Origin: a bacterium
GTDB lineage: Bacteria; ARS69
Assembly (NCBI GenBank): GCA_046330135.1
Contig: JAXLTI010000003.1
Span: forward strand, 387,913 to 451,912
DNA: 64,000 bases
Reading direction: 5' to 3'
Position 1 is the first letter of the stretch. Each line of letters opens with the position of its first letter. The translations under genes and the position numbers were made by a program. Shown here one piece after another: positions 42,471 through 59,133 of this stretch. A model generated the notes under the pieces. That model was not told the origin of the DNA. It was given only the letters and a program-made list of their open reading frames with translations, and searched no databases.

Positions 42471-43907
42471 ATGTGGAAACCGAGAGAAGCGCTCGTCTGG
42501 CTGCGTGAAGTCTCGCTCGATCCCCTGGGCGGACTCGGCGTCCTGCTCGCCACGCTCGGCGGCGGGCTGTTCGTCTTCTTCGTGGCCCTGAGCCTTCTCG
42601 GTTTCTTCCCGCTGTCGCCTTATCTCGGGATCTTCATCTACCTCGGGTTGCCGATCGTCCTCGTCGTCGGGCTCGCGCTGCTGCCCGTCGCGCACTTCCG
42701 CCTGACGAAGCGCAGCACCGGAGGCCGCCTCCCCACCTTCGACTTCGAGAACCCGCGCCACCTCCGCCGTCTGGGCATCTTCGCCGCCCTCACGGTCGTG
42801 AACGTCGTCATCTTCAGCTTCGCCGGTTACGGCGCCTACCACGTCTCCGAGACGAACGAGTTTTGCGGGAAGCTCTGTCACACCGTGATGAAGCCGGAGT
42901 GGACGGCCTACCAGCTCTCGCCGCACGCGCGCGTGAAGTGCGTGGAGTGCCACATCGGCCCCGGCGCGGATTGGTTCGTGCGCTCGAAGATCTCCGGGGC
43001 GCGCCAGGTGCTGGCGGTGGCCACCGGCCGCTACCATCGCCCCGTGCAGACGCCGATCCACAACCTGCGTCCCGCCCGGGAGACGTGCGAGCAGTGCCAC
43101 TGGCCGGAGAAGTTCCACGGCGACGCCCTGCGCGTCCTGCACCACTTTCAGCCGGACAGCGCGAACACGCCGCTCACGACCGTGCTCCTCCTCAAGGTGC
43201 GGGGCGGCGAGCAGGCTGACGCCGGCGCCGGACACCGCGGCATCCACTGGCACACCAGCCGCGCCACCCGCCTTACTTACGTCGCCACCGACGAGCGCCG
43301 GGAGAAGATCCCGTACGTGCGCCTGCAGCGCGGAAACGGGGCGCCCCTCGAGTTCTTCGCCGGCGATCCGGACAGCGTCAAGGCGCAGATCCAAGGTCAC
43401 GAGCAGCGGGTGATGGACTGCATGGACTGCCACAACCGCCCCACCCACGCCTTCGAGATGCCGGAGGAGGCGGTGGATCACGCGCTCGCGGACGGCCGTC
43501 TCGACCCCTCGATCCCCTGGCTCAGGCGCGAGGCGGTCCGCGTGCTGCGCGAGGACCTCCCCGCCGGCACCGATCCCGTCACGGCGCTCCGAGCGAAGCT
43601 CGACGCGTTCTACGCTCACGACGCCTCCGTGGCCGGCCTCGTGCCGGCGGCCGCGCTGGACGGCGCCGCGAAGGAGCTGAGCGCCATCCGCGGCCGCAAC
43701 GTCTTCCCCGAGATGGCCATCACCTGGGGCACCTACCCCGTCTTCCTGGGCCACCGCAACGACCAGGGCGGCTGCTTCCGCTGCCACGACGGCGAGCACA
43801 CCACGAAGGACGGCGAGACCATCGACAACGACTGCGAGCTCTGCCACAGCCTGATCGCCCAGGACGAGCCGAAGCCGCCGATCCTCACGACGCTCTACCC
43901 GAACTAG
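42471..43907 (+). CDS. Membrane-anchored NapC/NirT-family multihaem cytochrome (3 TM; 5 CxxCH + 1 CX3CH), ImcH-like architecture
   Basis: RBS taggagg. Three N-terminal TM helices are followed by ETNEFCGKLCHTVM. This is the NapC/NirT first-haem context with a one-residue insertion. Then come CVECH, CEQCH, CMDCH, CFRCH and CELCH. Confidence 0.85.
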   Translation: MWKPREALVWLREVSLDPLGGLGVLLATLGGGLFVFFVALSLLGFFPLSPYLGIFIYLGLPIVLVVGLALLPVAHFRLTKRSTGGRLPTFDFENPRHLRRLGIFAALTVVNVVIFSFAGYGAYHVSETNEFCGKLCHTVMKPEWTAYQLSPHARVKCVECHIGPGADWFVRSKISGARQVLAVATGRYHRPVQTPIHNLRPARETCEQCHWPEKFHGDALRVLHHFQPDSANTPLTTVLLLKVRGGEQADAGAGHRGIHWHTSRATRLTYVATDERREKIPYVRLQRGNGAPLEFFAGDPDSVKAQIQGHEQRVMDCMDCHNRPTHAFEMPEEAVDHALADGRLDPSIPWLRREAVRVLREDLPAGTDPVTALRAKLDAFYAHDASVAGLVPAAALDGAAKELSAIRGRNVFPEMAITWGTYPVFLGHRNDQGGCFRCHDGEHTTKDGETIDNDCELCHSLIAQDEPKPPILTTLYPN

Positions 43908-43976
43908 CACGCGCCGCAGGCCGGCTCTTCGTCTGCACCCGGTTCGTGCGTCTCACGTCGGCCGGCCGCGGGCCGC

Positions 43977-44700
43977 GGGCTCGGAGCCGTTTCAGGGTTC
44001 GCCCGTCTCGCCTCGGGGCCGGCCTCTTCGCCCCGGACGGGTCAGCCTCCGCCGTCCCGGCTCCGGCGCCCTCCCGCTCCGGCGGCTCCGCCATCCATGG
44101 CTCCGCCGCCTGCGCGAAGCCGCGTCGAAGAGGCCGGCCCCGAGGCGAGACTGACACCCGGGTCGTGGCGGTCGAGACCTGCCGGCGCCGCGTCGCTCCG
44201 AGGCCCGTCGCGAGTCGGCCGACCACCACGGCGTCCTCGCGGGACGTCCGTGCCGTCGGTGACGCGCGGCCGGTGATCGCGGCCGAGGTCGCGCGATCAC
44301 CCGGCGCGTCGCGCAGACCGCGCGAGGCGAGGCAGGCGTCGGCGGCTCGGTGGCGTGCTTTCGCAGCGGCTTCGCGGAGTCGCCGGAGCCAGGGATGGCG
44401 GAGGCGACGGAGCGGGAGGGCGCCGAAGCCAGGATGGCGTAGGCGACCGTCCGATGCGAAAGCACGACGCCGAGCCGACGGCGCGTTCATCGCGTGCGAT
44501 CACCGCCGACGAACGCCGCGCGAGGCGAGGCACGCGTCGGCGGCTCGGTGGCGTTGCTTCCGCGGCGACTTCGCGGAGGCGGCGCAGCCAGGATGGCGGA
44601 GCCGCCGGAGCGGGAGGGCGGCCGTAGCCCGGACGGCGGAGGCCGCCCGTTCGTCGCGGAAGCAACGCCAGCGAGCCGACGACGCGCTCATCACGTGCAA
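43977..44700. repeat. Palindromic intergenic repeat copy 2 (intact, 43977-44497) plus a ~205-bp tandem duplicate (44498-44700)
   Basis: A perfect 26-bp stem joins 44005-44030 and 44126-44151. A 10-bp hairpin reads ggtgatcgcg...cgcgatcacc (about 44270-44302). The ~80-bp core module gcttcgcggag.cg.cg.agccagg.atggcggag.cg.cggagcgggagggcg occurs 3 times here and 2 more times at 4.3-6.2 kb. The element fills an 823-bp convergent intergenic gap. Confidence 0.8.
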
Positions 44701-44730
44701 CCCCCCGCCGACGCGACGAGCGCCGCGCGG

Positions 44731-45840
44731 CTAGGAGCCGAAGCCGCGCTTCGGGTCCCAGACGCGGCCGTCGTCGTGGCAGCCGGCGCAGGAGGGCGCT
44801 TTGCCGGGGCCGTGACCGTCGACGTGGCAGTCCTTGCAGTCCGCTTCGCGATGGACGTCGTCGAGGACGACGGCGGTGACGGCGTGGTCGAACTTCTTCG
44901 GGTCGAAGCCCTCCGCGTGGCACGACTCGCAGCGCGGATCCAGCTTCGCCGGCGTGGTCCACGGCGGGTGGCACGCGCGGCATCCGAGGTCCTTGTGGTA
45001 CCGCGCGAGCGGCCAACCGGTCGCCTCGTGGGAGAAGAGATCGGTTCCGGCCCGCCCGTGGCAGCTCTTGCAGTCCGCCTGGGGGTGGGACGAGGTCTTC
45101 TCGGCCCGATGGCACCGGAAGCACGCGTCGTGCAGGTTCACCTGCGCGAGGTCCCCCATCGGGTGCGGCTCACGCCCTTGGACGTGACAGCGCTTGCACC
45201 CCTGGTCCTCGTGGCAGACCACGCAGTCGTTCTCGTACCGGGCCGAGTGGTTCTTGTGGTGGAAGGTCACGCTGTCCCCGGCAGCGAACTTCGTCTTGAA
45301 GACGATGACGTCGCGCATCGTGAGCGGCGCGTGGGCCGAGTGGAAGGACTGCGTCGCCGCGGCTTCGCCCTTCTTCGCGTGACAGATCACGCACGAGGTC
45401 TCGCCCTCCCACTCGCGGTGGCAGCCGAGACACTGGCGATGGTACGCGCCCTTGAGATCCGGCTGCTCGAGGTGCTCGCGCGGGACCTCCACCGGATGAC
45501 ACTGGCGGCACGCCGGATGCTCGTTGCCCTGCGGCGTGTGGTGGTGGCAAAGGGTGCAGTTGCCCTGGAATCGCGTCATGCTGCTGTGCGCCTTGTGATC
45601 GAAGCGCACGCCCTCGTACAGCTTGGCCAAGTCGTCCAGCACGACGACGTCGGGACCGCGCGCCGTCCGCGTCGCCTGCGGGCGCGGGCAACTCCTCAGG
45701 CACGGATCCGCCTTCGTGGGCACCTTGCACGAGTGGCACGACGCGCAGTCGCTCCCGTTCTTCTCGCTCGCCCGCGACGTCGGGGGCGCGAGCAGCGCCG
45801 TCCCGGCGAAGAAGGCGACCAGGACCGCGAACCGCCTCAC
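44731..45840 (-). CDS. Periplasmic 13-haem cytochrome c
   Basis: The GTG overlaps the upstream stop (GTGA). Signal VRRFAVLVAFFAGTALLAPP. There are 13 CxxCH in 369 aa: CASCH, CTLCH, CRQCH, CLGCH, CVICH, CVVCH, CKRCH, CFRCH, CKSCH, CRACH, CESCH, CKDCH, CAGCH. Confidence 0.85.
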   Translation of the reverse strand: MRRFAVLVAFFAGTALLAPPTSRASEKNGSDCASCHSCKVPTKADPCLRSCPRPQATRTARGPDVVVLDDLAKLYEGVRFDHKAHSSMTRFQGNCTLCHHHTPQGNEHPACRQCHPVEVPREHLEQPDLKGAYHRQCLGCHREWEGETSCVICHAKKGEAAATQSFHSAHAPLTMRDVIVFKTKFAAGDSVTFHHKNHSARYENDCVVCHEDQGCKRCHVQGREPHPMGDLAQVNLHDACFRCHRAEKTSSHPQADCKSCHGRAGTDLFSHEATGWPLARYHKDLGCRACHPPWTTPAKLDPRCESCHAEGFDPKKFDHAVTAVVLDDVHREADCKDCHVDGHGPGKAPSCAGCHDDGRVWDPKRGFGS

Positions 45841-47948
45841 GACGCTTCCCCGGCGCCCGCCGCCGGGAGCACCGGCAGCCGCGTCACGAGCCAGCGATAG
45901 ACGACGGCGAGCGTCGCGAAGAGGCCCACCGTCACGCCGATCTCGCCGACGCTCGGGAAGTACGGCTTCTGCGCGTACGGCGGAGCGTAGGCCACGAGGA
46001 ACACGTCGATGCGGTTCAGCGCGACCCCGCCGATCACGAGCAGCGCGGCCGCCAGCAGCGCCTGCGGCGACCGTCGCCGGCGCGCGGAAGCGAGGATCAC
46101 GATCGGCGCGAGCAGTCCGAAGAGCATCTCCACGAGGAGAACGCGCGACGCCAGGTCGAAGCGGAAGACGGCACCCCATTGGTCCCGGATCGTCAGGTCC
46201 GCGACCTTCGAGATGAAGTACACGCCCACGAGCACCGGAACGATGCGCGCGAGCCGCTCGAGGAGATGGATCTCCGGCGGCCGCCGGAAGGCGCGCGCCG
46301 ACAGCAGGGACTCGAGGATGACGACGGGGTAGCCCACCATGATCGCCGACAGGAGGAAGAGGAGCGGGAGCACGGGCGTGTACCAGAGCGCGTTCATCTT
46401 GCTGGGAACGACGAGCATCAACGCGCCGAGCGACGACTGGTGCAGGCACGACAGCACCACGCCCGCCACGAGGAGGAACGGCATGAGAGCGCGCAGGACC
46501 CCGTCGGCGCGGGTCAGGACGGTCTCGACGGGCTTCTCGAACGGGCGCAAGGGACCCGGAAGGCGCACTCGACCGCGCAAGCGCTCGATCACGACCGGCA
46601 GGAACTCGAGGTACAGCACGGTCAGATACACCATGACGCACATGCCGACCTCGAAGAGCACGGAGTGCCCGGACCACATCCACGGCATGGCGGGGTGCCA
46701 GAGGCGGTAGGGTCGCCCGAGGTCGACGGCCAGCCCCAGGACCACGAAGGTGTAGCCGAGCAGCGCCGACAGCAGCGCCGGCCGTGCGATGGGCTCGAAG
46801 TCCTCGCGGTGGAAGATGTGCGCGAGCGCGGCGGTGGTGAACCCGCCGGCGGCCAGCGCCACTCCGCCCGCCACGTCGATGGCGATCCAGATCCCCCAGG
46901 GATAACGGTCATCCAGGTGCGTGACGCCGGCGAGACCCAGGACGAAGCGGGCGACCGTGAACACGAACGCCACGACGGCGAGCCCCAGAAGGGTCATCGC
47001 TGCCGGCGTGCGGAAGCTGCCCTGGACCGGGGCGGGCGACGGCGAAGGCGCGTGCGCTTGCGCGCCGCCGTGCTCCTCCCGGCGCCGGAACAGCCAGGAG
47101 ATCCCGTACAGGAGCCCGTAGAGCCCGAGCGGCGGCACGAAGTTCTTGAACACCGCGTGCTGGAGGCGCTCGGTGCGGCGCGGCGGCGCCACGGACGAGA
47201 GCGCCGGGAAGCCGAGCTGATCGAACGGCACGCCGGCCACGTACATCCACGACGTCCCCCCCACCTCGTGCTCGCCGTAGACGTGGTCCACGTAGCGGCC
47301 GGCGTGGGTCTCCCGCTTGCGGCTCGCCAACTCAAGGAGTTGCGAACGCTTGCCGAAAGTGAGGCACTGCGGCGGGCAGATCTCGACACAGGCGGGAACG
47401 GCCGTCGCATCCTCGAGCACTCGATTCGCGCACATGGAGCACTTCCGGACCCGCGGAGTCAGGGGACTCTGGTACTCGTATCCCGGGATCTGGAACGGGC
47501 ACGCGACCATGCAGTACCGGCAGCCGATGCAGCGGCCGGCATCGTAGGTCACCGGTCCCCTCTCGTTCCTCTCCAGCGCCGACACGATGCACGCCGACGC
47601 GCACGCGGGCTCGAGGCAGTGCATGCACTGCACCTTGACCCACGTGGGGTTAGCGGCGCCCTCGGGACGGAACTCGTTCACGACCGTGAAGGCCGACGCG
47701 TCCGGCCGACGCTTTTCGGCGTAGACCGAGCGGGTCTCGAACTCCGGCATCGGCCGGGCGGGCAGGCCCTGCGCCTGGTTGCACGCCCACTCGCACTTCC
47801 GGCAGCCGACGCAGAGCGTCAGGTCGCAGAGGACGCCGAAGCCGTCCGTGGGCGGCGCGGCTTCCTTCGCCTCCGCCGGCGTGGTGCCGGGCGCGGCGGC
47901 CAGGGCGCCGATCGCTCCGCAGGTTCGGAAGAATTCGCGTCGTTCCAT
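45837..47948 (-). CDS. Fusion of a Tat-exported 4x[4Fe-4S] ferredoxin subunit (NrfC/PsrB/HmcB-like) and a polytopic NrfD/PsrC-like quinol-interacting membrane subunit
   Basis: Twin-arginine signal MERREFFRTCGAIGALAAAPG. Cys clusters: CVGCRKCEWAC, CMHCLEPACASAC, CIGCRYCMVACP and CSMCANR...CVEICP. A TM anchor, a short cytoplasmic linker and about 8-10 TM helices follow (...YPWGIWIAIDVAGG...). Confidence 0.85.
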   Translation of the reverse strand: MERREFFRTCGAIGALAAAPGTTPAEAKEAAPPTDGFGVLCDLTLCVGCRKCEWACNQAQGLPARPMPEFETRSVYAEKRRPDASAFTVVNEFRPEGAANPTWVKVQCMHCLEPACASACIVSALERNERGPVTYDAGRCIGCRYCMVACPFQIPGYEYQSPLTPRVRKCSMCANRVLEDATAVPACVEICPPQCLTFGKRSQLLELASRKRETHAGRYVDHVYGEHEVGGTSWMYVAGVPFDQLGFPALSSVAPPRRTERLQHAVFKNFVPPLGLYGLLYGISWLFRRREEHGGAQAHAPSPSPAPVQGSFRTPAAMTLLGLAVVAFVFTVARFVLGLAGVTHLDDRYPWGIWIAIDVAGGVALAAGGFTTAALAHIFHREDFEPIARPALLSALLGYTFVVLGLAVDLGRPYRLWHPAMPWMWSGHSVLFEVGMCVMVYLTVLYLEFLPVVIERLRGRVRLPGPLRPFEKPVETVLTRADGVLRALMPFLLVAGVVLSCLHQSSLGALMLVVPSKMNALWYTPVLPLLFLLSAIMVGYPVVILESLLSARAFRRPPEIHLLERLARIVPVLVGVYFISKVADLTIRDQWGAVFRFDLASRVLLVEMLFGLLAPIVILASARRRRSPQALLAAALLVIGGVALNRIDVFLVAYAPPYAQKPYFPSVGEIGVTVGLFATLAVVYRWLVTRLPVLPAAGAGEAS

Positions 47949-48113: not shown

Positions 48114-48142
48114 TTGAAAGTGATTCTCAGGTCCACTATTAT
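48114..48142 (+). promoter_or_regulatory. Near-consensus sigma-70-type promoter upstream of the NHL/cytochrome operon
   Basis: TTGAAA (48114-48119), a 17-nt spacer, then TATTAT (48137-48142). It lies in the most AT-rich stretch of the window, about 50 nt upstream of the ATG at 48195. Confidence 0.4.
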
Positions 48143-48194: not shown

Positions 48195-49202
48195 ATGCGC
48201 AGCTGGATTCAGGCCGGAGTCGTCGCAGCTTGGGGGGTGGGAGCAGGCACTGCTCACGCTCTGTCACCCCGGATCGACCACGTCGACGCGACCATCAACG
48301 GTCCCTCGGCCTTCGACAGCTTCCGCCGTCCCGCCTCGCTGGCCGTCTCCCAGGACGGCCGGCTGTTCCTCGTGGGGGACACCGGCAACCACCGCATCGT
48401 GGTCTTCGACCAGTCCGGAAGGTGCCGCGGGGCCTTCCCGCTCTCTCCCTCGGACCCCGCCTCGGCCGGCGTCGAGCCGCAGTCCCTGGCCCTCGACTCC
48501 CGCGGCCGGATCTACGTGGTGGACGGTCTGGACCACCTCCTCACCGTGCTCAGCGCCCGCGGCGCCTTCGTCGCGTCGCAGACGGTGCCCACCGAGCTCG
48601 CGCCGCAGGGCGGCGAGTGGGTGCGCTCGGTGGCGGTGGCGCCGAGTGGACGGATCTACGTGCTCCACACCGGCCCGGCCGCCGGGCTCTTCAGCGAGCT
48701 CCCCGGCGGCCGCGCCAGCACGGCGCACGACATTCGCTCGGGTCTCAAGTCCCTCGTCGCGCCGGTGGCGGTGGCGGTGAGCGCGGACGAGACCCAGGTG
48801 GCGGTGCTCGATCCGGAAGCGCGGACTCAAGTGCAGGTCCGTGCGCTCGACGGGACGCTGCTGGCGTCCTTCGGACGGCACGGAGAGGGCGAAGGAACGA
48901 TGTCCCTGGCGGTGCACGTGACCTGGGGACCTTCCGACACGCTGTGGATCACGGACACTCTTCGTCACTTCATTCACGTCTTCGATGCGCACGGGGCTTA
49001 TCTCGGGCGCGTCGGCGGCTTCGGCTCTTCACCCGGGCAGCTTTCGTATCCGGTGGCCTGCGGGTTCCTCGAGGACGGTCGTCTCGTGGTTCTCGAACGC
49101 GCCGGACGCTGCCAGATCCTGGAGGTGACTCTCTCGGACTCTACGAATGGGACGCTCTCCGGAGCGTCTGTGCGTCGCTCGGCCCCAACGGTCCTGTCAT
49201 GA
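48195..49202 (+). CDS. Secreted NHL-repeat beta-propeller protein
   Basis: RBS gaggaagg. Signal MRSWIQAGVVAAWGVGAGTAHA. Repeated NHL-type blades: RPASLAVSQDGRLFLVGDTGNHRIVVFD, PQSLALDSRGRIYVVDGLDHLLTVL, ...LWITDTLRHFIHVFD, LSYPVACGFLEDGRLVVLERAGRCQIL. Confidence 0.8.
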   Translation: MRSWIQAGVVAAWGVGAGTAHALSPRIDHVDATINGPSAFDSFRRPASLAVSQDGRLFLVGDTGNHRIVVFDQSGRCRGAFPLSPSDPASAGVEPQSLALDSRGRIYVVDGLDHLLTVLSARGAFVASQTVPTELAPQGGEWVRSVAVAPSGRIYVLHTGPAAGLFSELPGGRASTAHDIRSGLKSLVAPVAVAVSADETQVAVLDPEARTQVQVRALDGTLLASFGRHGEGEGTMSLAVHVTWGPSDTLWITDTLRHFIHVFDAHGAYLGRVGGFGSSPGQLSYPVACGFLEDGRLVVLERAGRCQILEVTLSDSTNGTLSGASVRRSAPTVLS

Positions 49203-49215
49203 TGGAGGTGTAGCA

Positions 49216-50253
49216 ATGTCGGTCAAGAAGTCCCTCGCCCTGGCCGGCGTACTCGCGTTGTTGGCTCTGCCGGCATACGCAGGCGACTACCATAAGGGCG
49301 TCAACCTGGTCTGCTCCGACTGCCACGTGATGCACTACAGCCAGCAGCACGGCTACAACCCGAACGGCGGCGGCATCTACACGCCGCTCGCGAACGGGCC
49401 GGTCACGTTCCTGCTGCGCAACGACGTGAACGACCTCTGCTTGAGCTGCCACGACGGGCAGTCCTTCGCGCCGGACGTCCTCGGGGCGCACGGCAACGGG
49501 TACATCCGTCAGGCCGGCGGGCTCAACGAAGTGGGCTCCACCGGTCCGTACTTCGAAGCGGACGGCCACACGCTCGGCTCCACGGATACGGCTCCGGGCA
49601 GCAACCCCGCCTGGAACAACGCCTCCGGCCTCGAGTGCGTGGATTGCCACGCTCCGCACGGCCGAACGAGCTCCGGCGTCACGAACGGCTACCGGAACCT
49701 CTACCCGAACAGCATCACGTACTCGCGCGGTGACGTGGACGGCAGCAATGACCTCACCAAGTGGGTTTACGAAGATGTGTCGTCGGGCGTGTCCGCGAGC
49801 CACTACGGCTACGACCACCTGACGTTCAACGAGCCCGTCACCACGGCCTCGCAGTACGCGACGTTCTGCAAGGGCTGCCACACGAACTTCCACGGCGACG
49901 TGGGCGGTCCGGAAATCGGCGGCTCGGGCACGCCTCCGATCGACTTCGTCCGTCACCCGGCCGCCACCGTCAACATCGGCGCGGCGGGCGCGGGTCACTC
50001 GAGCCTGACGCAGTTCGTCGGGCACACGAACCAGATGCAGGTCATGTCCCCCACCGGCAAGCGTGCCGGCACGTTCGACGCGACCGACACGGGTCTCACG
50101 CCGTCGTGCTTCTCCTGCCACAAGGGGCATGGCAACCAGAACGCGTTCGGGCTCATCTACCTGTCCGGCACGGGCACGGTCACGGAGGAAGGCGACGATC
50201 CGACGCCGACCTACCGCGAGATGTGCCGTCAGTGCCACACGATGGGCAGCTGA
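49216..50253 (+). CDS. Secreted hexahaem cytochrome c, OmcS-like (family call from memory-based alignment)
   Basis: RBS gatggagg. Signal ...LALPAYA. Six CxxCH: CSDCH, CLSCH, CVDCH, CKGCH, CFSCH, CRQCH. The contexts are collinear with G. sulfurreducens OmcS as I recall it. Ours YHKGVNLVCSDCHVMHYS matches OmcS FHSGGVAECEGCHTMHNS. Ours FCKGCHTNFH...RHPA matches OmcS WCANCHTDIH...RHPA. The last haem lies within the final ~10 residues. The protein is rich in Gly, Thr, Ser and Asn and is loop-rich. Confidence 0.8.
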   Translation: MSVKKSLALAGVLALLALPAYAGDYHKGVNLVCSDCHVMHYSQQHGYNPNGGGIYTPLANGPVTFLLRNDVNDLCLSCHDGQSFAPDVLGAHGNGYIRQAGGLNEVGSTGPYFEADGHTLGSTDTAPGSNPAWNNASGLECVDCHAPHGRTSSGVTNGYRNLYPNSITYSRGDVDGSNDLTKWVYEDVSSGVSASHYGYDHLTFNEPVTTASQYATFCKGCHTNFHGDVGGPEIGGSGTPPIDFVRHPAATVNIGAAGAGHSSLTQFVGHTNQMQVMSPTGKRAGTFDATDTGLTPSCFSCHKGHGNQNAFGLIYLSGTGTVTEEGDDPTPTYREMCRQCHTMGS

Positions 50254-50279
50254 TCGCGTAGTCTGACCGACTCCGTCTC

Positions 50280-50309
50280 GGGCCCGGCGAACCGGCCTCC
50301 GCCGGGCCC
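50280..50309 (+). promoter_or_regulatory. Strong intercistronic stem-loop after the OmcS-like gene (no U-tract)
   Basis: gggcccggcg-aaccggcctc-cgccgggccc: a perfect 10-bp GC stem, 27 nt after the stop, inside a 112-bp gap within an otherwise tightly packed operon. Confidence 0.4.
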
Positions 50310-50365
50310 TGACGGGGCTCCTCTCCGCGACCCGAGTCGTCCCCGAGGCCGCTAGGGACGTCCGC

Positions 50366-51517
50366 GTGAGAAGTCGAGTGGTGGTGGCGGTGGCGGCGGG
50401 CTGCGCCCTCGTGCCGGCAGTGCCGTCCAGCGATCCCCTTCCGGACCCGCACGGCGATGCGTCCTCCGGCGTGCTGCGCGAAGCGACGCAGCCGTCCACG
50501 CAGGGCGCCTGCGTCCAGTGCCATCCCGCGCACGGCGTCGACGCCGGCACGGCGAAGCCCATCCTCCTCTTCACCGACAACACGAACGAGCTCGCGTTCT
50601 TCTCTCAGGGCGCCGCCGCTTGCCACGCGAACCTGCCGCTGAACTACCCGCTCGCCGAGAGCGACCGCCTCCCCGAAGGACAGCCGGACGCCGGCTACTT
50701 CGAGGCGAACGACGGAGGCACTCGGCGCGTCGGCGTCGAGTGGCGCGGGCGCTGGCCCGGCCGCCAGACGTACACGGACGGTCGCGTCGTCGGGAACGGG
50801 CACTTCGTGTCGCCGCACGCGCTCGACCCCGACATGCCGCGCAAGGATCTCCTGGGCGAAGGGCTCTGCTTCAACTGCCACGATCCGCACCCCACGCAGA
50901 ACCCCTTCGATCTCCTCGTCCACGAGTACCGATCGATCGGCGGCGCCTCCTCCCTGGGTCCGCCCCAGGAGTACGAGCTGTGCTTCTCGTGCCACGGCCA
51001 CGGCGGCCCGGCGGGGATGGATGTGGAGAACACGCGCATCGAGGACTTCTACGACAACTCCCTCAACGGACTGACGGCGGGGCACGCCATCCGTCGCAAC
51101 CCGAACGTCGCGATCTCGTGGCCGAGCTCCGTGCGGCAGGGCGACATGCTGTCCTGCTCGGACTGTCACGACGCGCACGGCTCCCGCGGGAACGACGGCG
51201 TGAGCCCCAACGCCTTCGTGCTGAGCGACGAGCGAACGGGCTGGAGCGGGCTCACCGACACGCAAAACGACCCCACGCAGTGCCGCCGCTTCTGCTTCGG
51301 CTGCCACATCCCTTCGGACGGTATCGCCGGGACCCAGACGGTGCGCGGCATCGTGATGAACACCCTGACCGACCAGGCCGGCGTGCACGCCTCCACGAAC
51401 GGCCAGAGCTGCTACGACTGCCACGGGCGGGACTACGGATCGGCCACCGGCTTCAACGTCCACCACCCGGATCCCGCCGGCGGAGTCCCCGACCCGTTCG
51501 GCCGGCAGCGGGGCTGA
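50366..51517 (+). CDS. Hexahaem cytochrome c, probable lipoprotein
   Basis: GTG start. MRSRVVVAVAAGC carries a short signal and a possible lipobox. Six CxxCH: CVQCH, CFNCH, CFSCH, CSDCH, CFGCH, CYDCH. Confidence 0.8.
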   Translation: MRSRVVVAVAAGCALVPAVPSSDPLPDPHGDASSGVLREATQPSTQGACVQCHPAHGVDAGTAKPILLFTDNTNELAFFSQGAAACHANLPLNYPLAESDRLPEGQPDAGYFEANDGGTRRVGVEWRGRWPGRQTYTDGRVVGNGHFVSPHALDPDMPRKDLLGEGLCFNCHDPHPTQNPFDLLVHEYRSIGGASSLGPPQEYELCFSCHGHGGPAGMDVENTRIEDFYDNSLNGLTAGHAIRRNPNVAISWPSSVRQGDMLSCSDCHDAHGSRGNDGVSPNAFVLSDERTGWSGLTDTQNDPTQCRRFCFGCHIPSDGIAGTQTVRGIVMNTLTDQAGVHASTNGQSCYDCHGRDYGSATGFNVHHPDPAGGVPDPFGRQRG

Positions 51518-51523
51518 TCGATC

Positions 51524-53146
51524 ATGCGGGGTGCGCGCCACGCCCGCTCCTGGCGGCGTTCGAGCCCTTGGGCGCTCGGCGGGATCCTCGGCGCACTCGC
51601 GCTCGCGAGCCCCGCGGTGGCGATCGACGGCCGCTACCTGGGCACGTACCAGGAGACGAACGGAGGCGACGACTTCCGCGCGTTCGAGCACCGCACCGAC
51701 CTCGAGGGCCGACGTCTCCTCGCCCCCGGCGTGGACGGCCTGTTCGGGGCGTCGCTCCGCTACACGACCGAGCCCGGGGTGGACAACGCCGACCTGCTCC
51801 GCAGCCGTCTCTTCGGCGAGGCGCGCGGAGCGGCCTGGCGGTTCCACGGACAGTGGCTGCCCTGGCAGGACCAAGCGCCCGGCCCCACGCCGCCGCGCCA
51901 GCGGGAGCTGGAGCTCGGAGGCGACGCTCGGCTGCTCGGGGGAGCGAACCTGGCTGCGGATTGGACGCGATCCGACCACGACTTCGTCGAAGGCGTCTCC
52001 TCCTCGGACAGCAAGCGGATCCAGGTCGCGCGCGAGTGGAACGACGTCCGGACGAGCGCCTCGTGGCGGCGCATCGAGACGGAGCCGTCCGCGTTCTCGA
52101 TCGCGGCACCCACGAGGACCACCGAGTGGCGTGGAGCGGCCGGGTGGCAGCGATCCTCGCGCACGGTCTCCCTCTCCCTCGACTCGGACGCGCTCATGAG
52201 CCGTTACACCGAACGCGAGCGGAAGCGAGACTTCCACGCGGAGACCGTGGAGAGCGAGGCCGGCTGGCGCATCGGGCGTCGCACCTCCGTGGGCGCGTCG
52301 GGGCTCTTCCGCACCGGAGCGACGGACGACAACGCCCTTCCCTCCATCCAGGACCTCGACGAGCGCGCGGTCTCCCTCCACGCCGAGCACCATCCCTTCC
52401 AGTGCCTCGTCTTCGAGGGCAGCCGGGAGTACCGCAAGCGCCAGGACTTCAACGGCGACGTGCACACGGACTACTTCCGGCTCGGAACCCGCTTCTCGCG
52501 AGAGGTCGTCCGCGCGACGACGCTCCTGTCGGGCTACCAGCATTCCGTGGAGGTCGGCGGGAACGGCGACGAGGTTCCGAACAACGACGCTTGGGTGACC
52601 CTCGAGTCCCGGGTCCGGCGGGGCGTCGTCGCCCGCGCCGACGTGCGCACGCAGGACCCGCCCGCCGGCGACGAGAACCGTCTTTGGCGGTACCTCGGCC
52701 AGGTGACGCTGGATCCCACACCCAACACGAAGCTCGACGTCGCGTGGACCCGCCAGGTCCTGCCCCGGATCGACGGCCTCGCCCAGCACGACGGCGACTG
52801 GACCTTCACGGGGTCCTGGAATCCGGGCCGGGCGAGCCTCGTGTCGTCGTTGCGCGTTCTCCGCGGGGTTGGCAGAATCGACCGCTCGGAAAAGACCTGG
52901 ACGCTCGCCACCAGCGTCCCTCTCCCTCGTGGAGGCGACGTGCATTTCGACGCTCTCCACCGCGACAACGAGTCCGCCGGCATCGCCAGCGTGGAGAACA
53001 CGTGGGGCGTGGCCATGACCGCGCAGTTGCCGCAGGAGGCGCGTTTGATGGGTGCGTTTCGTCGCACCGCGAGGACCGATCGGCCGCGCGTTCTCAGCGG
53101 CACGGTCACATTGGAGCTCAAATTCGGAATGGGAGGACGGTCATGA
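51524..53146 (+). CDS. Putative outer-membrane beta-barrel (porin-like) protein
   Basis: 540 aa with signal ...LALASPAVA and no Cys-haem motifs. Long runs of alternating polar and aromatic residues are punctuated by G/D/N turns (e.g. AWRFHGQWLPW, TEWRGAAGWQRSS, TKLDVAWTRQV, DWTFTGSWNPG). It ends ...TVTLELKFGMGGRS. Confidence 0.6.
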   Translation: MRGARHARSWRRSSPWALGGILGALALASPAVAIDGRYLGTYQETNGGDDFRAFEHRTDLEGRRLLAPGVDGLFGASLRYTTEPGVDNADLLRSRLFGEARGAAWRFHGQWLPWQDQAPGPTPPRQRELELGGDARLLGGANLAADWTRSDHDFVEGVSSSDSKRIQVAREWNDVRTSASWRRIETEPSAFSIAAPTRTTEWRGAAGWQRSSRTVSLSLDSDALMSRYTERERKRDFHAETVESEAGWRIGRRTSVGASGLFRTGATDDNALPSIQDLDERAVSLHAEHHPFQCLVFEGSREYRKRQDFNGDVHTDYFRLGTRFSREVVRATTLLSGYQHSVEVGGNGDEVPNNDAWVTLESRVRRGVVARADVRTQDPPAGDENRLWRYLGQVTLDPTPNTKLDVAWTRQVLPRIDGLAQHDGDWTFTGSWNPGRASLVSSLRVLRGVGRIDRSEKTWTLATSVPLPRGGDVHFDALHRDNESAGIASVENTWGVAMTAQLPQEARLMGAFRRTARTDRPRVLSGTVTLELKFGMGGRS

Positions 53147-53715
53147 CGCAGCCACGCCGAAGGGGGTTCTTGGTGGCGCTCGGCACGATCGTCCTCGGCG
53201 GCTGCGCCAGCCCCGCGAAGTTCCTCGATCCCCAGGCGGACCTGGGCTACTACGAGCGCGTGGCCGTCCTCCCCTTCTCGTCCCTGGCGGCCGACCGCGT
53301 GGCGGGCGACAAGGTCGCCAGCGTCTTCTTCACCGAGCTCCTCGAGTCCCACGTTGCGGCGGCGGTCGATCCCGGCCAGCTCGCTGCGGCCATGGTGCAG
53401 GCGCGCGGCGGCACGCCTCCCACGACCCCTTGGTCGGCGGCGGAGCTCGCGAAGCTCGCGGAGTCGGTGAAGGCGCAGGGCATGTTCGAGGGCGTCGTGC
53501 GCGAGTACTCCCTCGAGCGGTCCGGGCGGGACTCCTTCCCCCTGGTCTCGCTCGAGCTGCGCCTCGTCGACCCGGGAAGCGGCCGGGTGATCTGGACCTG
53601 GAGCGACACGCGACGCGGCGGGCCGGCGTTCCCCCTGTGGCCGTGGCGCGAGACTCGAACCCTGGGCGAGCTCACCGCGGACATGTGCCGCGACGCGCTC
53701 GCGACGTTGCGTTGA
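53143..53715 (+). CDS. Lipoprotein, LpoB/CsgG/TolB-N-like fold candidate (paralog 1)
   Basis: The ATG overlaps the upstream stop (ATGA). Lipobox IVLGGC. YYERVAVLPFSSLA is followed by the amphipathic ...VASVFFTELLES. Confidence 0.6.
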   Translation: MTQPRRRGFLVALGTIVLGGCASPAKFLDPQADLGYYERVAVLPFSSLAADRVAGDKVASVFFTELLESHVAAAVDPGQLAAAMVQARGGTPPTTPWSAAELAKLAESVKAQGMFEGVVREYSLERSGRDSFPLVSLELRLVDPGSGRVIWTWSDTRRGGPAFPLWPWRETRTLGELTADMCRDALATLR

Positions 53716-53726
53716 GGGGGGCCGAC

Positions 53727-54353
53727 GTGGCGCGGTGGAGCATCCTCGTGGGGCTCGCGATCTCGGGCGCGACGGCCGGCTGCGCCAGCCCCGTGCCGCA
53801 CGCCTTCGAGGGACCGGGGCTGCCGGAAGGCGCCCGCGTGGCCATCCTCCCGCTCGTCAACTACACCACCAGCCGCGACGCCCCGGATCGGGTCACGCCC
53901 GCGCTCGGCGTCGCTCTGCGGACGCGCAAGCACCTCGACGTGGTGGACCCGGGCATCGTGGAGCAGGCGCTCGCCACGAACCCGTGGCTCTCGCCCGAGC
54001 GGATGCCTCCGGACGTCGTGGACAGCCTCGGCGTCGCCACCGGGGCGAACGCGCTCCTCGTGGGGAGTGTGCTCGCGTACGGGTACCGCGCGGGCGAGGC
54101 GCCGCAGGTTCCGGAGGTCTCGTTCGCCGTGAAGGTCGTGGAGACGCCGGGCGGCCGATGCCTCTGGAGCGCCGTGTTCTCGCGCGACGGCGCGGACCGC
54201 GAGCGCGTCTTCGGCATCGGCCGGATCGAGAGCCTCGAGAAGCTCGCCGACGAGGCCATCACGGAGCTCGTCGATACCCTCCCCGTGAGGTCGCGCACCG
54301 CCGCCGACGTCGCGGCGCCGACAGCCACCCCTGCGGAAGGAACGTCCCGATGA
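53727..54353 (+). CDS. Lipoprotein, LpoB/CsgG/TolB-N-like fold candidate (paralog 2)
   Basis: GTG 53727 follows gagggggg. Lipobox ATAGC. ARVAILPLVNYTTSRDAPDRVTPALGVAL and ...ALLVGSVLAYGY are present. It has the same architecture as the preceding gene. Confidence 0.6.
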   Translation: MARWSILVGLAISGATAGCASPVPHAFEGPGLPEGARVAILPLVNYTTSRDAPDRVTPALGVALRTRKHLDVVDPGIVEQALATNPWLSPERMPPDVVDSLGVATGANALLVGSVLAYGYRAGEAPQVPEVSFAVKVVETPGGRCLWSAVFSRDGADRERVFGIGRIESLEKLADEAITELVDTLPVRSRTAADVAAPTATPAEGTSR

Positions 54354-54964
54354 AGCGCGCCCGCCTCGCCACGCTCGCCGCCCTGTCGGCACTCGTCGCC
54401 GCCGCCGCCCTGGCGGGGCCGAGCGCGGATTCCGCCCCCTCGCCTCCGGACTCCACGAAGGTCGCGGGCTCCCCACCTGCCGCGCCGTCCACGACCCCGT
54501 CGTCTGCGGGCCCGTCGTCCGCGACCGCTGCGTCCACGGGCCCCTTTCGCGTTCGCATCGGGAGCCGGCTCTATCCGGACTGGTCCGAGGAGCGCGTGAT
54601 CGGCCTCGACGAGCCGTTCTATCTGGGGGACACGGACCTCAGGGCAACGGCGAAGCGGCACCTCCAGGACTTCAAGATCAAGAACGGCGTGGTGTACGAG
54701 GCCTCGAAGGAGCCGAACAACCCGGCGCTCTTCATCGTCGTGACTCGCGACACCTCCATCGTGGACAGCACCTGGGCTTTCCGGAACTTCCCGCCTCATG
54801 CGTCGCCCACGTCGTTCTTCACCTTCCAGCTCCTGGACCTCGCGGACTCCTCCAAAGCCACGAGCCGAGCCGCGCCGTCCGGGTCGGGCGCCGGGAAGGC
54901 CAAGGCGAAGCACCCGCACGCCGTCGCGGACTCCGCGAAGGCGAAGAAGGGCGAGGGGAGCTGA
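54350..54964 (+). CDS. Secreted protein of unknown function (low-complexity N-terminus, ~110-aa globular core, Lys/Ala-rich tail)
   Basis: The ATG overlaps the upstream stop (ATGA). Signal MKRARLATLAALSALVAAAALA. I recognise no family. Confidence 0.55.
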   Translation: MKRARLATLAALSALVAAAALAGPSADSAPSPPDSTKVAGSPPAAPSTTPSSAGPSSATAASTGPFRVRIGSRLYPDWSEERVIGLDEPFYLGDTDLRATAKRHLQDFKIKNGVVYEASKEPNNPALFIVVTRDTSIVDSTWAFRNFPPHASPTSFFTFQLLDLADSSKATSRAAPSGSGAGKAKAKHPHAVADSAKAKKGEGS

Positions 54965-54965
54965 C

Positions 54966-57900
54966 GTGACACGCTCGCGGGTCGTCGCTCTCGGTCTCGT
55001 CGTCGCGGCGGTCGCGACGTGGCTCGCCTTCACGCTGGGCGACCGCCCGGCGCTCGCCGCCCCGGAGCAGCCGCGGGCCCGCCCGTGCTACGACTGCCAC
55101 CAGCCGGCGAAGCAGAAGTTCGAGAAGGCGTCCTTCGTCCACGCGCCCGTGGCGAAGCAGGACTGCGAGGCGTGTCACAAGCGGCACGGCTTCGCACAGT
55201 CCCTGGTGCTGGCGCGCGACTTCCCCGCGCTGTGCGTGGAGTGCCACAAGGACGTCGTGAAGTCGCCCACCGCGGGCTCCTCGCACCTGGACATCAAGGG
55301 CACGAACTGCATCTCGTGCCACGACCCGCACGCTTCGAACACGAAGGGGCTGCTGCGCGGGACGCTCATCGAGACGTGCGCGTCTTGCCATCCGCGCCTC
55401 GCCGTGTCCGTCGAGTCCAGGAAGCCGCACGCGCCCTTCAAGGAAGGTCGCTGCGAAGCGTGCCATTCGTTCCACGACGCGGCCAAGCCGGGCCTCTTGA
55501 TCGCGGACGAGAAGGAGTTGTGCGCCCGCTGCCACGGAGACGCATCGAAGTTGCCGGATCTTCATGCGCGACCGGAGGTGGCGGGCGCCGCCTGCACGTC
55601 TTGCCACGATCCCCACGGCGAGCCGCCGGCCGAGCGCGGGCAGTTCATCCACCAGCCGTACGCGGCCGCGAAGTGCGACGCGTGCCATACGAAGCTGCCC
55701 GGCGACCCCGCGGCCCTGGTCGCTCCGGCGGAGCAGCTCTGCCTCACCTGCCACACGAAGACCAAGACGGATCTCACGAAGAGCACCACCCATCCACCCG
55801 CGGCGCAGGGGAAGTGTCTCCAGTGCCACGATCCGCACCGCTCCGATCTGCCGCGCCTCGTGCGCGGGAAGGCGGACGAGCTGTGCGGCGTCTGCCACGC
55901 TCCGCAGCGCGAGCAGATGAAGCTCGCGAGCGTTCATGCGCCGTTCGCCATCCAGGACTGCACGGCCTGCCACAACCCCCACGCGAGCGACCAGGCGAAG
56001 CTCCTGCAGAAGCCCCCCGAGGCGCTGTGCCGGGAGTGTCATCAGGCCGTGGTGGCCGCCGCGGACTCCGCCGCCGTTCCGCACCCCGCGATGGACGGGG
56101 ACTGCCTTGCGTGCCACGCGCCGCACGCGTCGAAGCGCGAGCCGCTGCTCGCAGGACCGCCGGACTCGCTCTGCTTCTCGTGCCACGAGGAAGTCGAGGC
56201 GGAGCGCTCCCGCCCCGTCGTTCACGAGCCGTTCCAGGGCGGCGAGTGCGTCTCCTGCCACGCCCCGCACGGCTCCGCGCACGCCGCGATCCTCCGCGAG
56301 GAGGACCCGAAGCTCTGCCTCCAGTGCCACCGCGCGCAGGCGGACGACCGCCGCAAGGCGAACGTCCACAAGCCGTTCGCGGAGGAGCGCTGCGAGAAGT
56401 GCCATGCGCCGCACGCGTCGGCCACGCCGGCGCTCCTCGTGAAGCCGCAGGGGGAGCTCTGCGCCCAGTGCCACGCCGCCGTCGCCACGGCACAGCCCGC
56501 GGCGGAGCTCCATCCGCCGGTCGCGAAGGGCCAGTGCAGCGCGTGCCATTCCCCGCACGCCTCCGACAGCGCGGGTCCGCTCCTCAAGACGCAGCCCCCG
56601 GATCTCTGCTGGAGCTGCCACTCGGATCTTCGCGACCGCCTGGAGGGCGCGAAGGTCCACAAGCCGGTCGCCGAAGGGCAGTGCAACACCTGCCACGACG
56701 GCCACCACGTCCGCGGCCCCGACGGGAAGGTCGCGCTCCTCAAGACGTGCACGTCGTGTCACGACCCGGCATCGGAGAAGCTGCGCGCGGCGCACGACGA
56801 CTTCCGCCCCGACGATGCGGCCTGCCTCTCGTGTCACGATCCCCACGGATCGACCGAGAAGGGGCTGCTGCGCCCCGTGCGCCACGAGCCGTTCGGCAAG
56901 GGCTCCTGCACCACGTGCCACGAGCCGCCGGCGCCCGGACGCAAGCCCGTGCTCGTGGAGCAGGTGCCCGCCCTCTGCGAGACGTGTCACGACCCGATCA
57001 AGGCCGGCCCGGGCCGGGAGCTTCACCCTCCCGTGGAGGCCGGGGAGTGCGTGGACTGCCACGCGCCGCACACGGCGTCGGCGCCTTATCTGGCGAAGGC
57101 GGAAGGGAAGGCGCTCTGCCTCACCTGCCACGACGACCCCACGGCGGGCCCCGACAGCACGCTCGTGCACGCGCCCGCACGGGCGGGGCTTTGCCTCACG
57201 TGCCATGGCGCGCACGAAGGCACCTCGCCCGGACTCCTGAAGACGGGCGGCGTGGCGCTGTGCGCATCCTGTCACGCCGACGTGGCGAAGCGCGCGCAGG
57301 GGCCGAACGCGCACGCTCCGGCCCGCGAGGGCCGTTGCACGGAGTGTCACGACCCGCATCAGGGCAAGCAGCGCGGGCTCCTCAAGGCGGCCATGCCGGA
57401 GCTCTGCGTGCGCTGCCACGACCTGACGAAGCCGGCCATCGTCGCCGCCCACGGCGGACGCCCGGTCACGGGCGGGCACTGCATCGATTGCCACGACCCG
57501 CACGGAACCGGAAAGAAGGGGCTCGTCTACCCGAGCGCGCACCAGCCCTACGCCCAGGGCAAGTGCGACTCCTGCCACAATCCGGGCTCCAATACGCTGA
57601 AGGCGGAAGGGGCGGCGCTCTGCGTGACCTGTCACGGCGACCACGCCGGCGACGCCACGCTGGCCGCGCCGCACGCCGCGGTCACTCAGGGGAGCGCTTG
57701 CCTCTCCTGCCACAGCCCGCATGCCGGGAGGACCGCGACGCTGCTGCGCCGGGACAGCCCTGCCGCGATGTGCTTCGCGTGCCACGACCGGTCGAAGTTC
57801 GAAGGCAAGGTCCGGCACAAGGTCGTCGACGACTGCACGACCTGCCACGCGCCGCACGGGAGCGCCAACGAGGGCCTGCTCCTCGAGCCGCAGGCGGAGC

Positions 57901-58118
57901 TGTGCGCCAGCTGCCACGACGCGGAGAAGACCCACGCCCACGTCACCGGGGCCCCGGCGATCGATCCGCGAACGGGGAAGACGCTCCGGTGCACGTCCTG
58001 CCACTCACCGCACGCGTCGGACCACGAAAGCTTGCTCAGGCAAGAAAAAGAGAGGAAGCTCTGCATTCAGTGCCACGTAGGACCCGATCTCGATGTGCCG
58101 ACGAGGGGGCCTCGCTGA
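54966..58118 (+). CDS. Giant multihaem cytochrome c with 42 CxxCH motifs (doubled-CXXCH / c7-polymer-like repeats)
   Basis: GTG 54966 lies 1 nt after the upstream stop. N-terminal signal/anchor VTRSRVVALGLVVAAVATWLAF. I counted 42 CxxCH by hand in 1050 aa. They are organised as roughly 48-aa dihaem units H-x-P-[FV]-x3-4-C-x2-CH-x-PH-x-S-x5-LL-x6-8-LC-x2-CH. Confidence 0.9.
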   Translation: MTRSRVVALGLVVAAVATWLAFTLGDRPALAAPEQPRARPCYDCHQPAKQKFEKASFVHAPVAKQDCEACHKRHGFAQSLVLARDFPALCVECHKDVVKSPTAGSSHLDIKGTNCISCHDPHASNTKGLLRGTLIETCASCHPRLAVSVESRKPHAPFKEGRCEACHSFHDAAKPGLLIADEKELCARCHGDASKLPDLHARPEVAGAACTSCHDPHGEPPAERGQFIHQPYAAAKCDACHTKLPGDPAALVAPAEQLCLTCHTKTKTDLTKSTTHPPAAQGKCLQCHDPHRSDLPRLVRGKADELCGVCHAPQREQMKLASVHAPFAIQDCTACHNPHASDQAKLLQKPPEALCRECHQAVVAAADSAAVPHPAMDGDCLACHAPHASKREPLLAGPPDSLCFSCHEEVEAERSRPVVHEPFQGGECVSCHAPHGSAHAAILREEDPKLCLQCHRAQADDRRKANVHKPFAEERCEKCHAPHASATPALLVKPQGELCAQCHAAVATAQPAAELHPPVAKGQCSACHSPHASDSAGPLLKTQPPDLCWSCHSDLRDRLEGAKVHKPVAEGQCNTCHDGHHVRGPDGKVALLKTCTSCHDPASEKLRAAHDDFRPDDAACLSCHDPHGSTEKGLLRPVRHEPFGKGSCTTCHEPPAPGRKPVLVEQVPALCETCHDPIKAGPGRELHPPVEAGECVDCHAPHTASAPYLAKAEGKALCLTCHDDPTAGPDSTLVHAPARAGLCLTCHGAHEGTSPGLLKTGGVALCASCHADVAKRAQGPNAHAPAREGRCTECHDPHQGKQRGLLKAAMPELCVRCHDLTKPAIVAAHGGRPVTGGHCIDCHDPHGTGKKGLVYPSAHQPYAQGKCDSCHNPGSNTLKAEGAALCVTCHGDHAGDATLAAPHAAVTQGSACLSCHSPHAGRTATLLRRDSPAAMCFACHDRSKFEGKVRHKVVDDCTTCHAPHGSANEGLLLEPQAELCASCHDAEKTHAHVTGAPAIDPRTGKTLRCTSCHSPHASDHESLLRQEKERKLCIQCHVGPDLDVPTRGPR

Positions 58119-59056: not shown

Positions 59057-59133
<77 letters not shown>

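Follow-up and report, generated by a model that had tools for sequence, protein, structure and literature searches.

A candidate compact version of the osc gene cluster, with PelC-like lipoproteins and a predicted 28-strand barrel among multihaem cytochromes

A conserved nine-gene cluster

We analysed a 64,000-nucleotide stretch of bacterial DNA (contig JAXLTI010000003.1 of assembly GCA_046330135.1, positions 387,913 to 451,912; hereafter the window) and, within it, five consecutive genes between positions 50366 and 54964. They encode a secreted 383-amino-acid (aa) cytochrome, a predicted 540-aa outer-membrane beta-barrel, two paralogous lipoproteins and a small secreted protein of 204 aa. They form the central part of a conserved nine-gene cluster, which runs from a gene for an NHL-repeat propeller to a gene for a c554-like cytochrome (Table 1). 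By analogy, the cluster appears to be the Eisenbacteria/Krumholzibacteriia-type version of the osc (OetI-type) cluster of Geobacter and syntrophic sulfate reducers. An initial annotation, made from the sequence alone, had described the five genes as a putative porin-cytochrome module with twin LpoB/CsgG-like lipoproteins and an orphan secreted protein.

Long spurious open reading frames (ORFs) are common in the window because its G+C content is ~71%. The five plus-strand genes stand out, with a third-position GC of 0.89-0.93 when compared to 0.81 in an overlapping antisense ORF; they are real, and lie at the positions and on the strand where they had first been placed. Counting from the 383-aa cytochrome gene, the first two genes are 6 nt apart, the next pair overlaps by 4 nt, the two lipoprotein genes are 11 nt apart and the last pair again overlaps by 4 nt; a single nucleotide separates the 204-aa gene from the gene of the 42-haem cytochrome. 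Promoter-like sites numbered 3 in the region, with 0.2 expected from shuffles, and a consensus scan found no terminator-like site on the plus strand from 48195 to 58118; such promoter and terminator sites are consensus matches only. Three DNA sequencing runs from two studies, and no RNA run, are listed as containing the sequence.

To analyse conservation, species-representative genomes were scanned with the 204-aa family. The scan matched 129 stretches, 11 of which encode a relative. Three of these 11 loci belong to Candidatus Eisenbacteria, one to Candidatus Krumholzibacteriia and the rest to metagenome-assembled genomes; one of the 11 is the G003 contig. The genes for lipoprotein 1, lipoprotein 2, the small protein and the 42-haem cytochrome follow each other in the order of the window in 11/11 loci. 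The barrel family is present in 10, and the remaining locus has at the same place a 574-aa ORF with a signal peptide and the end ...YTYRF. The OmcS-like gene and the second cytochrome gene are found in 10 loci, as is the NHL propeller at the same position; in each case the contig of the 11th locus is cut. The order of the cluster is strictly syntenic across related loci, and the co-conservation with cytochromes on which the initial annotation depended was observed throughout (11/11 loci; 10/11 for the OmcS-like gene, owing to the cut contig). In one Candidatus Eisenbacteria locus (L027:6956-8346) the barrel match comes in two pieces, covering query residues 16-207 and 222-476; a frame check gave no single open frame across them, and the split may be a frameshift or an assembly error.

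A wider sample comprised 60 other genomes. A lipoprotein match was found in 13, and its context was read in 12, that is, in all but G010, where the contig has 2757 bases. A gene with at least 6 CxxCH motifs lies near the lipoprotein in 9 of the 12 (G001, G002, G003, G004, G007, G011, G018, G050 and G058), and there are no cytochromes near the lipoprotein match in G035 and G060. The G021 relatives lie in a polysaccharide context without cytochromes (L016:7789-13234), beside a Wza-like exporter (Poly_export, SLBB) and a Wzz/tyrosine-kinase-like protein, and a LytR_C domain is fused to one of them. In G004 (L014:4447-6129) a 560-aa protein combines PelC-like regions with a C-terminal peptidoglycan-binding SPOR domain (PF05036, E 9.3e-12). 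In the rearranged cluster of G050 (L035; G050:C30:120500-140400), the genes for the 42-haem, c554-like and OmcS-like cytochromes and for a PelC-like lipoprotein are all kept, but in a different order and on the opposite strand, and a 9-CxxCH cytochrome accompanies them.

Upstream of the cluster the window holds further multihaem ORFs, with 11 CxxCH at 40472-42553 (minus strand), 5 CxxCH at 42471-43907 (plus strand) and another within 44731-46683 (minus strand). A 703-aa protein with a twin-arginine signal is encoded at 45837-47948 (minus strand) and by eye resembles an FeS/NrfD-type fusion. The genes at 40472-47948 are probably the inner-membrane end of the pathway.

Table 1. Features of the nine-gene cluster and its borders, in window coordinates
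Feature	Position	Strand	Remarks
Sigma-70-like promoter match	48114..48142	+	TTGAAA-17-TATTAT, 10/12 matches; upstream of the NHL gene, the first of the cluster
NHL-repeat beta-propeller protein, 335 aa, signal peptide	48195..49202	+	Pfam NHL E 1.5e-15; OscD-like position
Hexahaem cytochrome, 345 aa, putative OmcS family	49216..50253	+	6 CxxCH; profile match to OmcS
Second secreted cytochrome, 383 aa	50366..51517	+	6 CxxCH plus lone Cys-His
Outer-membrane beta-barrel (predicted), 540 aa	51524..53146	+	Signal peptide; predicted 28 strands, no plug domain
PelC-like outer-membrane lipoprotein 1, 190 aa	53143..53715	+	Lipobox Cys21; profile match to PelC
PelC-like outer-membrane lipoprotein 2, 208 aa	53727..54353	+	Lipobox Cys19; paralogue of lipoprotein 1
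Small secreted protein, 204 aa	54350..54964	+	Signal peptide, Ser/Pro linker, predicted beta-sandwich core, Lys/Ala tail
42-haem cytochrome, 1050 aa	54966..58118	+	42 CxxCH; MtrA/DmsE-like repeats
Cytochrome c554-like tetrahaem protein, 218 aa	58192..58848	+	Pfam Cytochrome_C554 E 2.4e-17; 4 CxxCH
tRNA-Asp	59057-59133	-	Cluster boundary

The twin lipoproteins, the barrel and the cytochromes

The two ~200-aa lipoproteins are paralogous, as the initial annotation had it (27% identity over 146 residues, E 1e-10; hhalign probability 99.2%). Each carries a similar motif ~18 residues past the lipobox Cys, RVAVLPF in lipoprotein 1 (Cys21) and RVAILPL in lipoprotein 2 (Cys19), and for either paralogue the lipobox Cys is kept in 12/12 orthologues. 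Lipoprotein 1 has 41 relatives. The profile of its family (40 sequences) matched PelC (9h80_C) with E 2.7e-11 over chain residues 5-165 of 172, the chains 5t11 and 5t10 with about 1e-7 (5t11, 8e-8) and GNA1162 (4hrv) with 6.8e-5. We take 5t11 and 5t10 to be crystal structures of PelC; the label in the PDB table is 'uncharacterized protein'. The profile of lipoprotein 2 (12 orthologues) likewise matched PelC 9h80_C (E 1.8e-11), 5t11 (1.1e-10) and 5t0z (1.9e-5), and CsgG reached only E 0.23. The nearest solved relative of both lipoproteins thus appears, on these profile matches, to be PelC. At the column of PelC Asp-119, lipoprotein 1 has Asp-130, and lipoprotein 2 has Pro, with a Glu two residues earlier. 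In PelC this Asp, in the D-loop, is described as contacting PelB (PMC12141448).

The initial assignment to an LpoB-, CsgG- or TolB-N-like fold holds for the broad fold class, but CsgG and LpoB were discarded as the closest family, since no curated cut-off is reached and the E-values for PelC are lower by about ten orders of magnitude. Pfam matches were weak across the 40 members of the lipoprotein 1 family (GNA1162-like in 26, LpoB in 16, CsgG in 9, DUF4136 in 9 and TolB_N in 1), and the best of the CsgG matches has E 0.0019. The window lipoproteins themselves fall below every Pfam and NCBIfam cut-off and do not match Pfam CsgG at E ≤ 1, and the cluster holds no csg genes. For LpoB, TIGR02722 gave 16.9 bits with a cut-off of 110.55, and Pfam LpoB gave E 0.37 and 11.1 bits with a cut-off of 22.3. 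The two proteins could in principle be lipoproteins with a housekeeping function in the envelope, either GNA1162-like or, like LpoB, activating peptidoglycan synthesis, and have nothing to do with the cytochromes; the weak LpoB and GNA1162-like matches and the SPOR-fused relative of G004 would fit such a role. We give this reading almost no weight, because the scores lie far below the curated cut-offs, the junctions inside the cytochrome cluster are translationally coupled or overlapping, and the pair is kept in that cluster in 11/11 loci.

Searches of Pfam and NCBIfam, and of the PDB with the single sequence, gave no family or match for the 540-aa protein. A word-indexed search retrieved 5 relatives, and their profile reached 57 representative clusters at E ≤ 0.001, 39 of them at E ≤ 1e-30; the family appears to be small but real. 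Distant relatives end in ...LEKxF, and an ending of this type is the usual last strand of outer-membrane proteins. The AlphaFold2 model, built from a 37-sequence alignment (mean predicted local distance difference test, pLDDT, 92.9), is an all-beta barrel to which DSSP assigns 28 strands between residues 33 and 536. Its loops are short, and a plug domain and a TPR domain are absent. The model bears out the initial proposal of a beta-barrel with a signal peptide, and also provides its strand count. Among the modest new points of this study is that the barrel of this cluster would represent a distinct 28-strand family.

Structural comparison of the barrel model placed MtrB (6r2q_B) first with Foldseek (E 2.3e-8; template-modelling (TM) score by query, TMq, 0.49), followed by ushers, BtuB and LptD, and first with VIA (Z 15.9; root-mean-square deviation 8.4; 416 residues aligned). 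All top fold matches are large outer-membrane barrels, but many unrelated generic barrels lie within 1 Z of MtrB in VIA, and we treat the likeness to MtrB as a lead, not as an assignment.

The match of both lipoprotein families to PelC would also suit a PelBC-type machine for exopolysaccharide export that lies among cytochrome genes by chance, with the polysaccharide forming a matrix that holds the cytochromes; the G021 relatives do lie in a Wza/Wzz-type cluster. This reading is very improbable in our judgement, given that the nine cluster genes encode no glycosyltransferase, PelA, PelB-TPR or Wza domain detectable with Pfam and NCBIfam, that the barrel has 28 predicted strands rather than the 16 of PelB, and that synteny with cytochromes is strict in 11/11 loci.

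The hexahaem cytochrome encoded upstream of the five genes (49216-50253) appears to be a member of the OmcS family. The profile of 9 orthologues matched OmcS (6ef8_A) with E 1.6e-36, and the match spans positions 26-347 of the 348 in the profile and the whole of the chain (residues 1-407 of 407). Single-sequence PDB searches with this protein and with the 383-aa cytochrome gave nothing useful. With its profile, the best PDB match of the 383-aa cytochrome was the MtrA chain of 6r2q (E 8.6e-4), which is not a close solved relative, and no filament cytochrome was matched. Its hexahaem content (6 CxxCH) is as initially described. In addition, a lone Cys-His pair, C86-H87 (..AAACH..), is invariant in 12/12 aligned sequences; it may bind a seventh haem via one thioether bond, or belong to an unusual long-spaced motif.

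The 383-aa cytochrome had been taken for a probable lipoprotein on account of its AAGC sequence. This reading was ruled out on conservation: a canonical lipobox is present in 0/10 orthologues, 9 of the 10 orthologue N-termini have no Cys ahead of the conserved DPHGD motif, and in the tenth a Cys occurs within a longer hydrophobic segment that ends in ALG-Q. Because the lipobox is not conserved, the protein is probably Sec-secreted, and not a lipoprotein. For the same reason the lipoprotein-cytochrome leg of the Pcc-type conduit that had been proposed is unsupported; its barrel leg stands. The 1050-aa protein encoded downstream carries 42 CxxCH motifs and matches TIGR03508 (DmsE/MtrA family) with E 8e-129 and Paired_CXXCH_1 with E 2.6e-213. 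A large predicted outer-membrane barrel and an MtrA-like 42-haem cytochrome, which characterise porin-cytochrome systems, are encoded in one cluster.

Such a combination could act as an electron conduit as in Mtr, Pcc or OetABI. In this case the barrel would sheathe one end of the 42-haem MtrA-like cytochrome and so wire the periplasm to the surface, the 42-haem wire would meet the OmcS-like filament or the second cytochrome there, and the PelC-like lipoproteins would merely seal or steady the periplasmic mouth. The first rank of MtrB in both structural searches, the plug-less model, shared with MtrB, the co-conservation of the 42-haem cytochrome in 11/11 loci and the presence of quinol-oxidising modules just upstream in the window all argue for it. 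Several observations argue the other way: unrelated barrels tie with MtrB within 1 Z, the lipobox of the presumed outer lipoprotein cytochrome is not conserved, and the one complex in which a member of this lipoprotein family has been solved is an export machine. To our knowledge, known Mtr and Pcc conduits also have no PelC-like lipoproteins. In print, the same kind of cassette has been named OetABI and read as a porin-cytochrome conduit, with a periplasmic OetA, the porin OetI and the lipoprotein cytochrome OetB, and the oet cassette is said there to carry omcS-like genes in positions analogous to omcS and omcT (Murali et al., 2023; PMC10553843); elsewhere OscE/F/G are assigned to OmcS secretion (PMC13194489). 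Taken together, we hold a conduit to be possible, though somewhat doubtful.

The small secreted protein and two types of cluster

The 204-aa protein has the signal peptide, Ser/Pro-rich linker and Lys/Ala-rich tail noted initially. It is, however, no orphan, since 78 relatives were found at E ≤ 0.01. The relatives have a core of ~100 residues in common (GSRLYPDW...LGDT...NPAV...WAFxNFPPH...FFTFQL), and the AlphaFold2 model places a beta-sandwich core at residues 63-169, with pLDDT above 95, between long disordered flanks. No Pfam or NCBIfam family was matched, the family profile gave 0 matches to PDB sequences at E ≤ 10, and Foldseek with the model gave none at E ≤ 0.001; CcsBA had rank 2 with a probability of 0.60. 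In a wide VIA search a secretin came top with Z 6.4, and CcsBA and CcmF reached Z 5.0 and 5.1, respectively. We name no fold from this search because its top Z does not come up to the 7-8 that chance usually gives.

Models of DUF2155 and ResB clusters from the ESM Atlas aligned to the 204-aa core over 105-109 residues with TM scores by query of 0.73-0.80, and all structural scores of this protein with ResB and DUF2155 are within the range of chance matches. Comparison with hhalign of the 204-aa family and the genome's own ResB gave a probability of 56% and E 1.1e-4 over 72 columns, and the motif NPA(V/L)...AF..FP is common to both. None of 42 family members matched Pfam DUF2155 (PF09923) or ResB (PF05140) at E ≤ 1. 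We take as a lead that the predicted core weakly recalls the periplasmic domain of ResB/CcsB and DUF2155.

A second type of cluster is found at six loci (L014, L015, L017, L018, L019 and L020). It encodes an OmcS-like cytochrome, a 710-792-aa barrel, one to three PelC-like domains and a SurA-like protein with two PpiC domains, and we refer to it as the isomerase type, as opposed to the compact type of the window. A propeller is encoded in all of these loci but L019, and a 42-haem cytochrome is present, but as a split pair (675 + 434 aa) in L015. By their products, these clusters seem to match the roles given for the osc operon in PMC13194489. Two of the 710-aa barrels (L020:2008-4140 and L015:4384-6516) carry an inserted domain that the window barrel does not have, and the insert of the L020 barrel is a NedA-like galactose-binding (F5/8 type C) domain (PF22633, E 3.4e-6).

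The six isomerase-type loci all lack a relative of the 204-aa protein, and none of the 11 compact-type loci has an isomerase inside the cluster. An isomerase-like gene lies ~4.5 kb beyond the cluster, on the other strand, in one compact-type locus (L026). With Pfam, no rotamase domain was found in the nine cluster proteins of the window, and SurA-like genes occur only elsewhere in its genome. Since no locus has both a 204-aa relative and an in-cluster isomerase, the small protein and the isomerase occupy one slot.

The two types also differ in their barrels. A hidden Markov model of the window barrel family, run against loci L013-L020, matched the G003 barrel and none of the larger barrels, and hhalign between the two barrel families gave a probability of 87% and E 3.9e-6 over the C-terminal 272 columns only. 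By these comparisons the two families would be distantly related at best. Between the window lipoproteins and their counterparts in the isomerase-type cluster of L015, identity is 24-29%.

Both types occur in one genus. The window's genome has the compact type only, and two genomes of the same genus, G001 (L018) and G002 (L019), have the isomerase type, with a 792-aa barrel, one lipoprotein and a SurA-like isomerase; their OmcS-like protein starts with FHSAGVAECAGCHTMHNS, and a 204-aa relative is absent. This distribution suggests that the whole cluster was replaced or transferred within the genus.

The likeness to PelC and the weak likeness to ResB may be linked. In such a proposal the cluster would encode a PelBC-like machine that moves or holds folded multihaem proteins, with a mixed lipoprotein ring, e.g. 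6+6, on the 28-strand barrel; the number of PelC-like domains per cluster is one to three, and these counts all divide twelve. The 204-aa protein would be a free-standing relative of the ResB/CcsB periplasmic domain that took over from the prolyl-isomerase chaperone as periplasmic handler of the nanowire cytochromes. We regard the linked pair as unlikely.

Proposed export or anchoring of an OmcS-like cytochrome, and comparison with known systems

In the osc system, OscH reportedly has a prolyl isomerase, OscEFG are said to be 'channel-like' and OscD is said to be propeller-like. OscE, OscF and OscG presumably correspond to about GSU2499-GSU2497 in Geobacter sulfurreducens. Annotations of the omcS region and related genes list GSU2497 as a lipoprotein, GSU2494 and GSU2495 as cytochromes, GSU2499 as hypothetical and GSU3586 as a YVTN propeller (PMC3495685; PMC10599522). 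The Geobacter osc operon is described as holding omcS, omcT and oscC, with OscH acting in folding, OscE/F/G in secretion and OscD in morphology (PMC13194489), and this source credits the proposal of OscE/F/G for OmcS secretion to Shen et al. (2025; Cell Chem Biol 32:239). The initial annotation had suggested an assembly or secretion role for the lipoproteins and the small protein, which agrees with the published osc reading, and had thought such a role not described for extracellular electron transfer systems. The latter does not hold, since OscE/F/G secretion (PMC13194489) and the OetABI conduit (PMC10553843) are both in print: the secretion and conduit ideas have already been published, one per group, and the system is a variant of a published cluster, not a new system.

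We consider the barrel and the lipoproteins to form a module that includes a PelC-like ring and that, like OscEFG, exports or anchors its cargo, and put the probability of this reading at roughly 60%. Twelve copies of PelC are reported to form a ring that sits at the periplasmic rim of PelB, a barrel of 16 strands (Benedens et al., 2025; PMC12141448). By analogy, both lipoproteins would be anchored in the inner leaflet of the outer membrane and would assemble into a mixed ring where the barrel opens to the periplasm, much as the twelve PelC subunits do on PelB. A folded haem protein could pass through the wide plug-less barrel or be lodged in it, and the module would serve to export the OmcS-like filament subunit or to anchor it, which is what has been proposed for OscE/F/G. 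The 204-aa protein would replace the prolyl-isomerase chaperone of the other clusters, and may handle the cytochrome cargo in the periplasm. The ring, its cargo and the role of the 204-aa protein are what we infer from these likenesses.

Several points weigh against this reading. The equation with OscEFG rests on synteny, on citing text and on background knowledge. The window barrel belongs to a sequence family other than that of the isomerase-type barrels, and none of the nine proteins of the window cluster is a prolyl isomerase. With 16 strands in PelB and 28 here, a 12-mer of the PelC type may not fit. The top structural match to MtrB and the MtrA-like 42-haem cytochrome in the cluster fit a conduit equally, and a conduit is how this kind of cassette was read by Murali et al. 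(2023; PMC10553843). OmcS nanowires are also described as dispensable for some forms of electron transfer in Geobacter (PMC13194489). Export and conduction are not exclusive, however, because a filament could have its base inside the barrel, in contact with the 42-haem wire.

Published views differ on the exit of nanowires from the cell and on their wiring to the periplasm: this kind of cassette has been read either as a secretion machine (osc) or as a conduit (Oet). The compact form, with its small plug-less barrel of 28 predicted strands, two lipoproteins and a small beta-sandwich protein instead of a large chaperone, may be a simpler structural target for deciding between the two. The comparison extends the system to Eisenbacteria and Krumholzibacteriia. 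What is new is modest: (i) the isomerase is swapped for a small, possibly ResB-like protein; (ii) the lipobox of the 383-aa cytochrome is not conserved; and (iii) the lone Cys-His of that cytochrome is invariant. If true, the weak link of the 204-aa protein to haem-attachment machinery (ResB/CcsB) would be a new lead.

When compared with known systems, the small protein would have a beta-sandwich core like that of DUF2155 and of the periplasmic domain of ResB/CcsB, the System II cytochrome c synthase. In contrast to ResB/CcsB, it is a free, secreted protein without transmembrane helices and with long disordered flanks.

In both the osc cluster and the window cluster, genes for an OmcS-family cytochrome, a beta-propeller and a very large multihaem cytochrome lie alongside the module, and OscEFG, likened here by synteny and description, consist of an outer-membrane barrel and lipoproteins, as does the module of the window. 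When compared with the osc type, the window barrel is shorter (~540 aa, against 710-792 aa there, some with a galactose-binding-like insert) and of another sequence family, and it is accompanied by exactly two single-domain lipoproteins. A prolyl isomerase (OscH) is absent and a small, possibly ResB/DUF2155-like protein stands in its place, and the 26-haem and 16-haem cytochromes of osc are fused in the window as one 42-haem protein.

In PelBC of Pseudomonas aeruginosa (PDB 9H80), the lipid-anchored PelC is encoded beside an outer-membrane barrel, like the lipoproteins of the window; the PelC matches of both lipoprotein families extend over almost the full chain, and the Asp-119 of PelC has an aligned Asp in lipoprotein 1. 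PelBC has a single PelC, whereas the window has two paralogues. The window barrel has 28 predicted strands and no TPR, when compared to the 16 strands plus TPR of PelB, no pel genes were found among the cluster proteins with Pfam or NCBIfam, and the likely cargo would be a haem protein rather than a cationic polysaccharide.

OetABI and MtrCAB (PDB 6R2Q) resemble the window in placing a large plug-less barrel beside MtrA-like multihaem repeats. We take MtrB to have 26 strands, against 28 predicted for the window barrel. The window cluster differs from both systems in having PelC-like lipoproteins and no conserved lipoprotein cytochrome, and from MtrCAB in that its periplasmic cytochrome carries 42 haems instead of 10.

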